Assembly: GCA_964645485.1 (NCBI GenBank)
Contig: CAZXZO010000026.1
Span: 1 to 23,745, forward strand
Length of the DNA: 23,745 nucleotides
DNA from: an uncultured Candidatus Poseidoniales archaeon
GTDB lineage: Archaea > Thermoplasmatota > Poseidoniia > Poseidoniales > Thalassarchaeaceae
Reading direction: 5' to 3'
Shown here in pieces: positions 12,936 to 18,560 of this stretch. A program made the position numbers and the translations under genes. The notes beneath the pieces were generated by a model. The model ran no database searches and was not told where the DNA came from. It saw only the letters and a list, made by a program, of their open reading frames with translations. Every line of letters starts with the position of its first letter. The stretch's first letter is position 1.

Positions 12936-13053
12936 GACATCAACCTCTTATCTTGGGTCTGCCACAAGCCCCCTCTTCAAGCGTTTTTCGCCCAAGACTG
13001 TTAGTTGACTTCAAGAGTTGTCTCGTTTTCGCGGCAATAGAAGAGGGGTTAGC

Positions 13054-15924
13054 ATGACATTTGGTGACATTGATATCCCATTTTTCAATGATGCTGGATT
13101 CGTGCGGAAGAAGTGTCGCGTTTCGGACTTATGGTTCTGGACACGAGATAAAACCAGAGAGACTTGCGGTGACACAATAGAAGATGAATACACTTTCATT
13201 GGCAAGCCGTTGATTGCTGGGTTTCCCGAGCGTGGAAATGCACTGTTAACTAAAATGAGAGAAACATTCCTCACTTTTTTTGAAGAACAAGGCCACACTA
13301 GAATTGAACCTTACCCGGTAATTGCGCGCTGGCGAGATGACATTCACCTTACTATAGCATCAATTGCTGATTTCCAACCCGATGTAACTGGCGGCATTAT
13401 TCCTCCGCCAGCAAATCCGCTAACTATTTCGCAGCCGTGTATTAGATTGACCGATGTGGCCGCAGTTGGCCGCTCAGGTCGACATTTGACAACTTTTGAG
13501 ATGATGGCTCATCATTGTTTTAATCGCCCCAAAGATGGTGATGTTGTTTACTGGATTGACGAATGTGTACGGCTCTGTGATGATTTATTTGTGACAAGAT
13601 TAGGAATTGACCCTGACTCAATAACTTACGTAGAAAATCCCTGGTCGGGTGGCGGGAATGCTGGCCCAGCAGTAGAGGTAATTGTCGGTGGTTTAGAATT
13701 GGCAACTCTTGTTTTCATGAACCTAGAAGAGGACCCGGAGGGTGATATTGAAATCAAGGGAGAGTGCTACTCCGAAATGGAATTACAAATTATTGACACG
13801 GGATATGGTTTGGAAAGATTCTGTTGGGCGGCTGCAGGAACGCCTACAATCTACGAAGCAATTTACCCAGAAACAGTTGGTTGGCTCAGGGAATTATCAG
13901 GATTTGACTCAAAATTAGATATGATGGAAGGTATTGATTCTGACCTTCTATTGTCCGAATTATCAATGCTAGCAGGTATCCTCAACATTGACGTCGGCAC
14001 CGATGTTTCATCGCTTTACGAAAAATTGGTAGAAAGACTGGCAAGTCGTGGTGTAGATATTAGTCTAGATGACTTGAAATCCATTACCGAACCACTCTCA
14101 GCAATCTATGCGATCCCAGACCACTTACACGCTCTTTGCAATATGCTTGGAGATGGCTTGGTGCCATCAAATGTGAAAGCGGGATATCTTGCCCGCATGT
14201 TGGCCCGAAGGACTTTGAAAATGCGGGACCAAATTGGAATTGATGTTTCATTGAGGGAATTGGGCGAGCACCACTTAGATGTCAATCTAGTTGGTCGAGA
14301 ATTCACTCAAACAAGGGATGGAATCCTAACTATTCTCGAATTGGAGGAGAATCGTTACGCACAGATGTTGAAGGCCGGTGTTGCTGCTGTCAGAACCGCA
14401 CTCAAAGATGTAGACACAGATGCGGAAGAAATTGACGATGAAATCTTGTTCAACCTTGCGCAAAGCAGAGGATTGCAACCAGACATGGTTGTTGAAATCG
14501 CAAAATCAGCAGGTTGGCCTAATCTGACAGTTAGACTTGGATTGGCAGCAGATATGGCGGCGCGCCATGCTTTGCAAACAAAAGAGACTGCGCTTGGCAA
14601 AAAGACAAGTGGATTGTTCGAGGAAGGAAGCAATTTACCTGCGACTTCGTTAGATTTTTATCAGGACACATCACAATCAGAATTCAATGCAGAAGTGTTA
14701 CACTGTCAAGAATTATCAACAGATGAAATTGCAAAATTAAATCTCTCCACAGAAGTTAACGGGGTACCAACTCATGGAATCGTCTTAGACAGAACTTTGT
14801 TCTATCCAGAAGGAGGTGGGCAGTTAGGAGATTCTGGCACACTAACCAACGGAAAAACCGTGGAAGTTTTAGACTCTCGAATCAATGAAGGAGTAGTCTT
14901 CCACCTTTGTGATGGCCCTCTAGAAGGTAAAGTAGATGGGAAAATCAACGTTGAAAGGCGACTACAATTGATGGACCATCATACATCAGTCCACATTGTA
15001 GGAGGATCTGCTAGAGCAATACTCGGGCCACATATTTGGCAAGCAGGTAGTAACAAAGGGGAACGATATGCGCGCCTTGATGTAACTCATTATCAGCGGC
15101 TCACCCGCTCACAACTAGATGAAATTGAAGACCATGCTAACGAGATTATCACCCAGGATTTACCGGTAGAAAAATTAGTTTTAGACAGAGCGGATGCAGA
15201 TTCTCAATTCGGATTTGAGTTGTATCAAGGTGGACCTCCAAAACATAAGCAAATTCGTGTCATCAAAATAGGCGACCACGATGTTCAGGCTTGCGGGGGT
15301 ACGCATCACGATAAAGTAGGCCAAATTGGTGATATCAGGATAATTCGAAGCAGTGCGGTTCAAGACGGGGTGGAGCGTCTGCAAATTGTGGCAGGAGAGA
15401 CCGGACGGGAGCACGCCCGCAAACAAGAGGCGATTTTAGCCGAAGCGTCTGATGTTCTAGGAGTCAATGCAGAGGAATTACCAACTGCTGTTCAACGGTT
15501 CTTTGACGAGTGGAAATCACAACAGAAAACTATTGAAAACCTCGAGGCAGAAATCGTTAGACTGAGGACCAGTGGCGGCGGAAATGAAAGTTTCGAAAAA
15601 GACGGGGTCCGTTACGTCATAATGGAAGGGACTGGTGACATGAGACAACTTGTAGGAATGGTTGGCGAATTGACTCGTGACCAAGAAAATCCAACTGTCG
15701 CAATCCTAGGGACAAGAGATGGTGGAGGGAAACTCCTAGTTGCTATTACTGAATCTTCGATTGCTTCTGAAAAACATGATGCCGTACAAATTCTCAATTC
15801 TATATCGTCTCACATCTCAGGAGGGGGGGGAGGTAAGCCGACATTTGCTCAAGGTGGAGGTTCAAATCCAGACGGTTTAGGTGATGCTCTTGATGCGGCA
15901 AAACAATTGCTCGGACTACAGTGA
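13054..15924 (+). CDS. alaS: Alanyl-tRNA synthetase, archaeal type
   Basis: TIASIADFQP, QPCIRLTD, GRHLTTFEMMAHH, IDTGYGLERF, FYPEGGGQLGDSG, editing-site DHHTSVH and ACGGTH, DHHA1 GGGGGKPTFAQGGG. ATG 13054 (after GAGGGG) is preferred over the track's 13018. Confidence 0.98.
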   Translation: MTFGDIDIPFFNDAGFVRKKCRVSDLWFWTRDKTRETCGDTIEDEYTFIGKPLIAGFPERGNALLTKMRETFLTFFEEQGHTRIEPYPVIARWRDDIHLTIASIADFQPDVTGGIIPPPANPLTISQPCIRLTDVAAVGRSGRHLTTFEMMAHHCFNRPKDGDVVYWIDECVRLCDDLFVTRLGIDPDSITYVENPWSGGGNAGPAVEVIVGGLELATLVFMNLEEDPEGDIEIKGECYSEMELQIIDTGYGLERFCWAAAGTPTIYEAIYPETVGWLRELSGFDSKLDMMEGIDSDLLLSELSMLAGILNIDVGTDVSSLYEKLVERLASRGVDISLDDLKSITEPLSAIYAIPDHLHALCNMLGDGLVPSNVKAGYLARMLARRTLKMRDQIGIDVSLRELGEHHLDVNLVGREFTQTRDGILTILELEENRYAQMLKAGVAAVRTALKDVDTDAEEIDDEILFNLAQSRGLQPDMVVEIAKSAGWPNLTVRLGLAADMAARHALQTKETALGKKTSGLFEEGSNLPATSLDFYQDTSQSEFNAEVLHCQELSTDEIAKLNLSTEVNGVPTHGIVLDRTLFYPEGGGQLGDSGTLTNGKTVEVLDSRINEGVVFHLCDGPLEGKVDGKINVERRLQLMDHHTSVHIVGGSARAILGPHIWQAGSNKGERYARLDVTHYQRLTRSQLDEIEDHANEIITQDLPVEKLVLDRADADSQFGFELYQGGPPKHKQIRVIKIGDHDVQACGGTHHDKVGQIGDIRIIRSSAVQDGVERLQIVAGETGREHARKQEAILAEASDVLGVNAEELPTAVQRFFDEWKSQQKTIENLEAEIVRLRTSGGGNESFEKDGVRYVIMEGTGDMRQLVGMVGELTRDQENPTVAILGTRDGGGKLLVAITESSIASEKHDAVQILNSISSHISGGGGGKPTFAQGGGSNPDGLGDALDAAKQLLGLQ

Positions 15925-15957
15925 GTAACCAATAACCATTTGTTGGAGATATGTGAT

Positions 15958-16911
15958 ATGACTACGTACTCATCAACCCCATTCCCCCCAAGAAAAATAT
16001 TACCATACGAGGATTCACTCATTGTTATTGGAGTCGATGGCCAATTAGCAACAATTGATTGTGAAAGTTTAGAACAAAAAGGTGGCGTAGTGCAGCCTTT
16101 TCCTAGTCCAATAGAAGACGCCACCATTGTTGAGAACAAGCTGATTGCAACTTGGGTCCTGCCTGAATTATCATTAGCCCGGATGGCTGCATTACCTTTG
16201 AATAAAGAATTCACTAACGGAATTGACAAGAGTTTGTTACGAGTTAAGCAGAATAGAAGAGGACAAGATGTCCCTGTAGCAGGTGCAGATTGGAGCCACT
16301 CATTAGACGCTGAACCACTCGGAATTACTTCCCATGAAGGGTTAATTTGTTTTGCAAACTATAATCGAGGAGTATATTGTATAGACTCTGATTCAAGAGA
16401 AATTTGGAGGATTAAAGAAATAAAATGGCTGAGCCAAAAACACATTGAAGATGCGTCAGTCATTCATGCAGTAACAACAGGACCACATCCCTCTAACAAA
16501 AATGAACAAAGTGTCTGGTTATGGGGGCACGGTTCAGGATGGGTTGCTTTAGAATGGGATACTGGTGAAATCATTGCCCAAGGAACTTTGGAGAATAAAG
16601 GAATTCTTGACCAAGTAAGAACTGACCAGCAAGGTGGTTGGTTAATTGGCTTTGAGAGTGGTGAAATCATCAAATGGGACCCCGAAAATAATTCCGAGGA
16701 AAAAATTGAAGGAGGGCCGTTTTGTGATGCGATTTTCTCAAAAGGTGTATGGGATATTCTCGGCTGGCGTGAAAACATAACTTGGAATGGAAACCAAGTA
16801 AGTAAAACCCCAAGGAAGAACTTGGGTGTCAGTTTGTTGAACCACGAAAAATTCGGCTTGTTGGCCTTGAATAATTCAGGTGAATGGGTGGCTTTTAGCC
16901 ACTCTTGCTGA
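15958..16911 (+). CDS. Hypothetical protein, probable PQQ-like beta-propeller
   Basis: Trp/Gly-rich beta-strand repeats (GVYCIDSDSREIWRI; GWVALEWDTGEII; GEIIKWDPE). Co-oriented 33 nt after the alaS stop. ATG 15958 follows GGAG (the track starts at TTG 15940). Confidence 0.7.
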   Translation: MTTYSSTPFPPRKILPYEDSLIVIGVDGQLATIDCESLEQKGGVVQPFPSPIEDATIVENKLIATWVLPELSLARMAALPLNKEFTNGIDKSLLRVKQNRRGQDVPVAGADWSHSLDAEPLGITSHEGLICFANYNRGVYCIDSDSREIWRIKEIKWLSQKHIEDASVIHAVTTGPHPSNKNEQSVWLWGHGSGWVALEWDTGEIIAQGTLENKGILDQVRTDQQGGWLIGFESGEIIKWDPENNSEEKIEGGPFCDAIFSKGVWDILGWRENITWNGNQVSKTPRKNLGVSLLNHEKFGLLALNNSGEWVAFSHSC

Positions 16912-16914
16912 TTC

Positions 16915-17130
16915 TCACTCTTCTTCGGAGGTGGCTTCTGTTGGTGCTTGTTCTGTAGATTCAGTTGCTACTGGTTCAATAGATGGGCTAGCATCATAAC
17001 CACAGCGACCACAGGTTGAGCGGTTGGAATGATTTGCCAAAAATACGCCTGGACCACAGATCTTGCAATGCGCATTCTTACGAACTAATTTGCCATCTTC
17101 AACAGAATAAAGGCTTGAACGGTTTGACAT
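16915..17130 (-). CDS. rps27ae: 30S ribosomal protein S27ae (eS31) with acidic C-terminal extension
   Basis: [39 protein letters not shown] zinc-finger signature; TAATG overlap with the rps24e stop. Confidence 0.96.
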
Positions 17131-17495
17131 TATTCTTCACCTCCCGAAACATCATCTTCAGTTTCAATTTCTGCGGGTGGTGCAACATCTGGCACCTCAG
17201 CAGGTGCCTCTTCTTCCACAACAACAACACCATGTCTATCAAGAATGTATTGAGGTTCAATTTGCATTGCTTCTGGTGAATCATAAATGAACGCCAGTCC
17301 AGTAGTCAAAGGTTGACCGAACCGTGTGTTCACATCTTTTACGACAACATTTGACGCTGATGAACCCGGTTCAAGTGATGCAACTTTGCTTCGCAAGTTA
17401 CTCCGGCTTGGAGTTGCTGATTGTTCATGCCGCAACTGAAATCTGATTTCGATACGACTCAATAATGAATTTTCTTTTCTGTCTACTATTTCCAT
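17130..17495 (-). CDS. rps24e: 30S ribosomal protein S24e (eS24) with acidic C-terminal extension
   Basis: [31 protein letters not shown] motifs. ATG 17495 with GGAGG RBS is preferred over the track's 17519. Confidence 0.95.
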
Positions 17496-17508
17496 AATAA
17501 TTCCTCCT

Positions 17509-17901
17509 TCAGCGCACATTAACCTTTAGTGCGTAATTTCCTGCCCTCTCAATGTTTAGAATTGATGAAATTTCTGAACGTTCTGGGTTGAGTACTACCA
17601 CGTACCCCTGCCAATCAGAACTTAGATGTGCACCCGGGCAGAACGGACATTCCGGGTTGGTTGGTTTAACTCGCTCCATGTCATCCTTCAATTCTTTAGC
17701 CAATGCCTTGTGTTGGTCATCAGAAGGTTGCAAACCATTCTTGTTAATGTATACTAATTGAACTAAAGCCTTCTTGGTTTTTGCCGATACATCATTGTCC
17801 GACTTAAGGCACCATCCAAGATTGCCAGTGGCAACTTCGACAATTCTGTGACACTCGGAACAAGCAAGTTCGACCTTCTTTGACACCTTATTCACCGCCA
17901 T
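17509..17901 (-). CDS. spt4: Transcription elongation factor Spt4 (RpoE'') with large internal insertion
   Basis: ACSECHRIV ... CPFCPG ... LSSDWQGYVVVLNPERSEIS ... GNYALKV, in the canonical position directly after rpoE1. Start is ATG 17901 or GTG 17886 (GGTGA RBS). Confidence 0.9.
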   Translation of the reverse strand: MAVNKVSKKVELACSECHRIVEVATGNLGWCLKSDNDVSAKTKKALVQLVYINKNGLQPSDDQHKALAKELKDDMERVKPTNPECPFCPGAHLSSDWQGYVVVLNPERSEISSILNIERAGNYALKVNVR

Positions 17902-18439
17902 TTACTAACCATTCGTGAGCACCAAGTCCAGGTTGCTTACAGGTAAGTCCAATCTTTGATGAGCGTGGGTCGTGAGTGTTCAGTGAAAGTGTGACAACCC
18001 TAGAGCGCAGTGGGTCTGCAATAGAGAGTTGAGCGCCAGAACGGCTACCGATGATTTTGCCCTCATTTTGGTTGATTTGGACAGGTTCTTCAAGAATCTG
18101 AGACTTGTGAAGTAAGCCTTCAAGTGGACCAATCTGAACGAACGCTCCAAATTCAAGGACCTCGGAAACTGCACCGTCAACTATCTCGTTGCTGTCAAGA
18201 CGGAAAAGTACAGCCTTGAAACGGACATTCTGGTAAATCGCTCCATCTCCATGGATGATTCTTCCTCGACCAATCATCTCGTGATCATAAGTAACAATGA
18301 CAAAATTGTCATCATCATCAAACTTGCCTTCAAACGCCTGATGCGCTAGTCGGTCAACGTGTTGACTCAATGATTGCCCCTCGCGGATGTATTCCGCGGG
18401 GATTCTGATAGTATCCTCTCTGACTTCAAGTGTGTACAT
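17888..18439 (-). CDS. rpoE1: DNA-directed RNA polymerase subunit E' (Rpo7)
   Basis: MYTLEVREDTIRIP, GRIIHGDGAIY, S1-domain FGAFVQIGPLEGLLHKSQI, KIGLTCKQPGLG. ATG 18439 has GGAGG 8 nt upstream (alternative ATG 18454). Confidence 0.97.
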   Translation of the reverse strand: MYTLEVREDTIRIPAEYIREGQSLSQHVDRLAHQAFEGKFDDDDNFVIVTYDHEMIGRGRIIHGDGAIYQNVRFKAVLFRLDSNEIVDGAVSEVLEFGAFVQIGPLEGLLHKSQILEEPVQINQNEGKIIGSRSGAQLSIADPLRSRVVTLSLNTHDPRSSKIGLTCKQPGLGAHEWLVNGGE

Positions 18440-18446
18440 CTTTTTT

Positions 18447-18560
18447 CCCTCCATTCACCGCTCGCCGAGAGGTGTGCCATGGAACGGAAGGGTTCACAAC
18501 CCTCCCGTCCCTCACAGGCGACGCCTCCAGAAGAGAGGTTTCCAGTGGCTCGCCGACCTG
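18447..18560 (-). ncRNA. Candidate structured cis-regulatory leader RNA (or small ncRNA) upstream of the rpoE1 operon
   Basis: About 65% GC by manual count. 14-bp hairpin at 18481-18511 and a second stem 18551-18560/18515-18523, whose non-Watson-Crick pairs are G.U only on the minus strand. No known RNA family recognised. Confidence 0.5.

Follow-up and report, generated by a model that had tools for sequence, protein, structure and literature searches.

An additional predicted domain between the zinc knuckles of Spt4 in Thalassarchaeaceae archaea

Spt4/5 is a universally conserved transcription elongation factor that is usually regarded as invariant in archaea. Canonical archaeal Spt4 proteins, represented by the structures from M. 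jannaschii (3LPE/4ZN1) and P. furiosus (1RYQ/3P8B), are 59-64 amino acids in length, and the paired knuckles of their four-ligand zinc ribbon are separated by about 8-15 residues. Published structures show Spt4 seated on NGN, next to the upstream DNA. In the Pol II system this DNA is ringed by Spt4 together with NGN and KOW1, which close the DNA-exit tunnel, and the archaeal complex has been modelled with this tunnel unclosed (PMC6150629). The NGN domain of P. furiosus Spt5 contacts upstream DNA (bioRxiv 10.1101/2024.01.05.574147), and in the FttA pre-termination complex Spt4 has been described as touching the Spt5 NGN domain only (PMC11616081). Among the papers covered by the literature search none linked Spt4 with Marine Group II or the Poseidoniales, and a search for insertions in the zinc ribbon of archaeal Spt4 returned nothing relevant.

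The Spt4 described here shares with its canonical archaeal counterparts the four-ligand zinc ribbon, the operon, the C-terminal core motifs D-W-x-G, R-S-E and G-x-Y-A-L-K and a predicted fold that superposes on theirs at an rmsd of 1.2-1.3 Å over 59 residues. It differs from them in holding 67 residues between the knuckles, which are predicted to form an extra domain.

The spt4 locus and the inserted domain

The window, by which we mean the whole stretch of 23,745 nucleotides analysed, encodes a 130-amino acid Spt4 (RpoE'') in a cluster of four genes whose order, rpoE'-spt4-rps24e-rps27ae, is the one usual in archaea, with each stop codon region overlapping the next start (Table 1). This operon was kept in all 44 of the loci examined. 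Both the Pfam model for Spt4 (PF06093; 36 bits, cut-off 25) and the NCBIfam model NF041664 (69.6 bits, cut-off 50) matched the protein, in each case over residues 82-128 only. Membership of the Spt4 family was supported by every line of evidence that could be applied, namely HMM score, zinc ligands, fold, operon and the presence of Spt5 in the genome, the last being an NGN- and KOW-containing protein encoded on contig C12. The 130-amino acid protein is the only Spt4 detected in this organism. During transcription elongation it would pair with Spt5, as a heterodimer with the NGN domain that binds the RNAP clamp. Elsewhere in the window, a 323-amino acid open reading frame (15940-16911, forward strand) lies between the gene for alanyl-tRNA synthetase (13018-15924) and the ribosomal genes, converging on the operon.

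Table 1. Features of the spt4 operon and of the encoded Spt4, in window coordinates
Feature	Position	Strand	Basis or remark
rpoE' (RNAP subunit E', SHS2_Rpb7-N and S1 domains)	17888..18454	-	upstream operon partner of spt4
spt4 (rpoE'') CDS	17509..17901	-	130 aa and stop; 14-nt overlap with the end of rpoE', 11-nt overlap with the beginning of rps24e
rps24e (ribosomal protein S24e)	17130..17519	-	downstream operon partner of spt4
rps27ae (ribosomal protein S27ae)	16915..17130	-	downstream operon partner of spt4, after rps24e
First zinc knuckle, C14-S-E-C17	17851..17862	-	invariant in alignment; superposes on solved Spt4
Inter-knuckle residues 18-84, inserted domain (predicted) in place of ancestral 10-residue loop	17650..17850	-	alignment, models, selection
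Insert beta-hairpin, residues 19-32, with invariant motif G29-W30-x-L32-K33-S34	17806..17847	-	models and alignment
Insert helix 1, residues 43-55, after conserved A-K41-x-K43-K44	17737..17775	-	models and alignment
Insert helix 2, residues 61-71	17689..17721	-	models
Insert strand, residues 75-78, starting at Met75 (internal start of 56-aa database gene calls)	17668..17679	-	models
Second zinc knuckle, C85-P-F-C88	17638..17649	-	alignment; superposes on solved Spt4
C-terminal Spt4 core, residues 89-130	17512..17637	-	part matched by Pfam and NCBIfam Spt4 models; superposes on Spt4

The spacing of 67 residues between C17 and C85, which a preliminary description of this DNA had already noted, can be read directly from the open reading frame and compares with 10-15 residues in relatives without the insert, giving a net insertion of approximately 52-57 residues. 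Homologues of 123-141 amino acids (40-95% identity) aligned with the protein from end to end, whilst relatives of 67-77 amino acids aligned to residues 1-20 and 85-130, with one gap between the two segments. Across 32 aligned sequences C14, C17 and C85 were invariant; position 88, a Cys in this protein, varies between Cys and His among relatives. An AlphaFold2 model of the full protein built from the same number of sequences had a mean pLDDT of 82 and a pTM of 0.53, the latter leaving the inter-domain geometry uncertain. When superposed with VIA-align, the model matched M. jannaschii Spt4 (4zn1_B) with Z 9.2 and an rmsd of 1.2 Å over 59 of 59 target residues, spanning model residues 11-129, and P. 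furiosus Spt4 (1ryq_A) with Z 9.1; the top Foldseek matches were likewise all Spt4. Since both knuckles superpose on solved Spt4, they are predicted to join as in the canonical protein, with the insert looping out between them. In the model the split halves still assemble into the zinc ribbon and core typical of Spt4, and zinc binding is predicted.

The topology predicted for the insert is strand-strand-helix-helix-strand, with strands at residues 19-24, 29-32 and 75-78 and helices at 43-55 and 61-71. When the insert was modelled alone from 14 sequences, the pLDDT was 83-93 over the core and the secondary structure was as in the full-length model (in window numbering, strands near 29-32 and 39-40, helices at 43-55 and 61-71, and a strand at 75-78). 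In prediction the insert is thus a small, separate and independently folding alpha/beta domain of approximately 57-67 residues.

Overall identity of the insert across the three genera that carry it is 42-57%. Eleven of its columns are invariant (G29, W30, L32, K33, S34, K41, K44, N55, P59, K72 and D74) and six more are nearly so. Basic residues are conserved at K33, K41, K43, K44, K65, K69, K72 and R77 and acidic ones at positions 58, 61 and 63 and at D73, D74 and E76, the window's own protein having Q58 and Q63. Across relatives the insert varies in net charge between -3 and +7, and Cys31 is limited to the window's genus, with Trp in its place elsewhere. Codon-level dN/dS of the insert was 0.05-0.22 at dS 0.3-2.5, compared with about 0-0.12 for the Spt4 core, from which it follows that the insert is translated and constrained; its rate of change within genera is several times that of the core. 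Some inserts have gained further residues of their own: 7-8 after helix 2 (NELNSATGV or NELNADGV type) in some species of the genus termed g5 below (L020:889-1113 and L022:775-996), and 14 following the L-K-S motif of P0117, a sequence of g3 type.

These results bear on several points of the preliminary description. Its central proposal, an in-frame, conserved insertion in a genuine Spt4, was upheld by the HMM scores, the alignment and the AlphaFold2 fold, and hypervariability, which it had raised as an objection, is contradicted by the 11 invariant columns and the low dN/dS. It had portrayed the insert as helical, Lys-rich and bearing an extra cysteine. Two helices are indeed predicted, but so are three strands, making the fold alpha/beta; there are conserved lysines, but the range of net charge means that the insert is not consistently Lys-rich or basic; and the extra cysteine, Cys31, is present but not conserved.

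Profile searches of 5.8 billion proteins retrieved about 110 insert-bearing clusters, which consisted entirely of Spt4 or Spt4 fragments and belonged entirely to Thalassarchaeaceae (Marine Group IIb). The 90% cluster that includes the window's Spt4 has 57 members drawn from NCBI, JGI, ENA, Tara and Logan; together with the number of clusters, this breadth of sources indicates that the insert is real and not an assembly artefact, another concern voiced at the outset. As an observation, the Spt4 insert is solid. Two large proteins from the HMMER scan (P0023 and P0053) were false matches, in which repeats aligned with the D-W-Q-G-Y region and not with the insert.

Searches for a known relative of the insert were negative. 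The insert alone had no Pfam match at E<=10, a profile of 14 inserts gave nothing significant against PDB sequences (RBM39 matched by chance, at E 0.4), and a query of the ESM Atlas with residues 18-84 returned only the protein's own Spt4 cluster. Foldseek searches of the PDB and wide VIA-align comparisons, conducted with both the whole model and the insert alone, gave no match to the insert fold above Z 3.4. Candidates considered amongst these, including AFV1p06, the C2H2 fingers of Kaiso and ZAP1, and winged helices, were rejected because their scores were at noise level (Z<=3.4).

Distribution and history of the insert

The homologues carried the source names Candidatus Thalassarchaeaceae and uncultured marine group II/III. 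A survey of full-length matches in 100 other genomes of the family Thalassarchaeaceae located insert-bearing Spt4 in three genera only, here termed g1 (the genus of the window), g3 and g5. In g1 the insert was found in six of the eight other genomes with a match, in addition to the window's own, in g3 in one of four genomes, and in g5 in seven of nine. No full-length match was found in the 76 genomes sampled from the two other Poseidoniales families. Short Spt4s were encoded by genomes of the same three genera (G093 and G063 in g1; G002, G027 and G038 in g3; G051 and G081 in g5). The suggestion that the insert is lineage-specific was borne out: it occurs only in Thalassarchaeaceae, in subclades of three genera, some species of which lack it. 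It is not a trait of the Thermoplasmatota at large.

The fourth zinc ligand (window 17638-17649; L008-L024 and L033-L047) also varies across the order. The second knuckle is C-x-x-C in the window's Spt4, C-x-x-H in most Spt4s of g5 and some of Poseidoniaceae, and takes the form C-N-A-H-P-[ED]-A-H-C in Spt4s of g3 and in the g1 forms without the insert. Given this variability, CCCH or alternative ligation looks common among the Poseidoniales.

A tree of the flanking genes was inferred from the RpoE' and S24e proteins and rooted on other families. The insert-bearing rows fell into three separate subclades, each with insert-less sister or basal lineages, and forcing them into a single clade was rejected (delta lnL 261, AU p 2.5e-6), implying either lateral spread or repeated replacement. 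The insert-less Spt4s retain the 10-residue loop motif found throughout the order, ILxDG[IV]DQC, examples being ILDDGIDQC, ILADGVDQC and ILEEGIDEC in g3 and ILDDDQEMC in g1; their loops are ancestral and not the scars of deletion. The inserts are clearly homologous to each other, hence the insert arose once. Beyond that single origin, its present distribution requires at least two further events, either transfers into a native spt4 or replacements by the ancestral allele.

These events of gain or replacement could not be oriented, for three reasons. A tree of the inserts alone resolved a separate clade for each genus and gave no direction of transfer. Divergence of the insert scales roughly with that of the host, and when expressed relative to RpoE' it becomes smaller at greater distances, as expected from saturation, so that this measure cannot separate loss from transfer. 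Lastly, GC and GC3 of the insert match those of each host locus, leaving no compositional trace of transfer.

Possible roles of the insert and alternative readings

The NGN and KOW regions of Spt5 are 98% identical between G015, a g3 genome with the insert, and G002, which is without it, indicating that the insert needs no co-adapted Spt5. The Spt4 residues conserved in the family are also unchanged in insert-bearing forms, and together these observations fit an accessory, non-essential addition to the surface. In the closest relatives without the insert, the loops that it replaces are acidic (net charge -3 to -4); the exchange of such loops for a conserved cluster of lysines, considered with the open DNA-exit tunnel of the archaeal complex, suggests a contact on the DNA-exit side.

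On balance we lean towards a reading in which the Spt4 loop has been replaced by a folding accessory domain that offers a contact surface, tunes elongation and has spread by recombination between spt4 alleles. The domain would project from the tip of the zinc ribbon, away from the interface with the Spt5 NGN domain, and could provide the elongation complex with an accessory surface for contacts. Its most likely target would be upstream DNA, or a chromatin protein bound to that DNA, at the open DNA exit, with a lineage-specific protein partner as the alternative. It would tune elongation without being essential, and its passage between genera may have occurred via recombination of spt4 alleles. 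Set against a contact surface are the recovery of no known DNA- or protein-binding fold, the best structural match having Z 3.4, and a net charge that, at -3 to +7, has no consistently basic character. Purifying selection on the insert could also reflect only the need to avoid misfolding an essential protein. A rather doubtful variant would see in the insert a transferable in-frame cassette of single origin, which entered the Spt4 loop of at least three genera by recombination and was kept for a new contact of Spt4/5, for example by closing the DNA-exit tunnel, open in archaea, around chromatin or upstream DNA, or by recruiting a lineage-specific factor.

The insert may instead be a near-neutral passenger, that is, a self-folding peptide in a permissive Spt4 loop, which has no activity, is kept against unfolding and has been moved by allele exchange. 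This we regard as possible, though not probable. It would account for the patchy distribution, in which close insert-less relatives have a 98% identical Spt5, and is in keeping with the rate at which the insert evolves relative to the core within genera, its variable net charge, its tolerance of secondary insertions (8 amino acids in L020 and L022, and 14 in P0117), the existence of unrelated insertions in the same loop or elsewhere in other Spt4s (P0024, P0065) and the lack of a known fold among the matches. A passenger is harder to reconcile with dN/dS values as low as 0.05-0.1, with charges of a surface type (K33, K41, K44, K72 and D74) that are invariant across three genera whilst overall insert identity is 42-57%, and with persistence in about 110 sequence clusters; the appearance of the insert in three separate clades, too, would be more readily understood if selection favoured the allele that carries it.

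Two further explanations would deny the insert a place in the mature protein, or treat it as a mobile sequence. NCBI nr holds 56- and 60-amino acid entries (P0068, P0073 and P0079; MERVKPTNPEC... or MKDDIERV...) within the same 90% cluster, which start at the internal Met75 (window 17677-17679) or nearby and match canonical Spt4 in length, raising the prospect that the true product is a protein of 56-60 amino acids and that the 74 codons ahead of it are not translated or belong to another product. We consider this very improbable, as such a product would be without the first CxxC, whereas residues 8-20 align to the N-termini of insert-less Spt4s (A-C-x-E-C-H-R-I); moreover, in every relative this 74-codon stretch is uninterrupted and shows purifying selection, the start codon (ATG, 17901) and the rpoE' stop overlap in the manner of a compact operon, and many relatives have Ile or Val in place of Met75. 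Records lacking the first knuckle look like systematic mis-annotation, the gene having most probably been cut down to the length expected of Spt4. Frequent truncation at Met75 populates databases with non-functional half-Spt4 records and hides the insert variant. Metagenome gene callers produced similar truncations of 82-112 amino acids (P0146 and P0202-P0208); considered as partial inserts, these were rejected as gene calls truncated at an internal Met.

Least probable of all is that the insert is removed, as an intein, a bulge-helix-bulge intron or an intervening sequence, or that it is a multicopy in-frame selfish element akin to the Rickettsia palindromic elements, even though its host gene is conserved and essential, Cys85 comes next after it and its phylogenetic distribution is mosaic. 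At 57-67 amino acids it is much too small for a HINT domain (at least approximately 130 amino acids), it ends in N-P-E before Cys85 and not in a C-terminal His-Asn, it has no intein or Hint match in Pfam, and its predicted strand-strand-helix-helix-strand fold is not that of HINT, in agreement with the preliminary remark that it lacks intein ends. Codon-level purifying selection speaks against an untranslated intron. Multiplication is not evident either, as no second copy was found at the protein or DNA level in the window's genome (G000), no direct or inverted repeats of note flank the insert, and no relatives of it were found on viral contigs. A 554-nucleotide contig (87% identity) extends without a break from rpoE' to within the insert (17676-18208), but it comes from a run that is labelled metatranscriptomic and was flagged as 'probably DNA', and it was left out of the evidence.

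Comparison with known Spt4 proteins and insertions

A predicted folded domain added to Spt4 in abundant uncultured archaea of the ocean would mean that the core elongation machinery has been elaborated in specific lineages. Because the distribution is mosaic, species bearing the insert can be paired with species that lack it but have near-identical Spt5, and these natural pairs are ready controls for biochemistry. Spt5 has an extension of its own in this group: the protein of the window's genome (L051:1216-2175, contig C12) and those of four relatives (L048-L050 and L052) are about 305 amino acids long, with approximately 145 N-terminal residues ahead of the NGN (162-225) and KOW (264-295) domains. 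This extension had no Pfam match at E<=1, resembles by eye a degenerate Nudix fold, and is present with or without the Spt4 insert.

The zinc ribbon loop of Spt4 has received another, unrelated insertion. The MGII-type Spt4s P0024 and P0080 (149 amino acids) also have an insertion between the knuckles, of approximately 85 residues, in P0024 within a core 81% identical to Spt4 of the Poseidoniaceae type (family f3). For the P0024 insert, Pfam gave a weak SAP signal (E 0.025) that fell short of the cut-off, and inserts of this type were not found in 150 sampled Poseidoniales genomes. It is non-homologous to the insert described here (hhalign probability 0.4%), and its occurrence in the same loop marks that loop as a permissive site. 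The idea of a SAP/HeH domain (PF02037) in the window's insert, which had been raised by P0024 and by visual inspection, was not supported, with no SAP or LEM chains listed among the fold matches to the insert (all Z<=3.4). In P0065, a 135-amino acid Spt4 of another archaeal lineage, an insertion of approximately 70 residues follows the D-W-x-G-Y-V-V-V strand, and the zinc ribbon is uninterrupted.

Eukaryotic Spt4s (yeast 2EXU, human 3H7H/5OIK) are also larger than the canonical archaeal protein, with chains of 98-118 amino acids, and matched the core of the window's Spt4 with Z 7.1-7.5. Their extra residues are C-terminal and lie outside the zinc ribbon loop, and no similarity was found between eukaryotic Spt4 and the insert. 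A broader parallel exists in the insertions of bacterial RNA polymerase, such as SI3 of beta' and those of the beta subunit, which are lineage-limited surface domains in conserved transcription machinery and are dispensable in relatives. Those insertions occur in the large catalytic subunits and are made of known repeat folds, whereas the insert described here sits in Spt4, a small accessory factor, and has no recognised fold.
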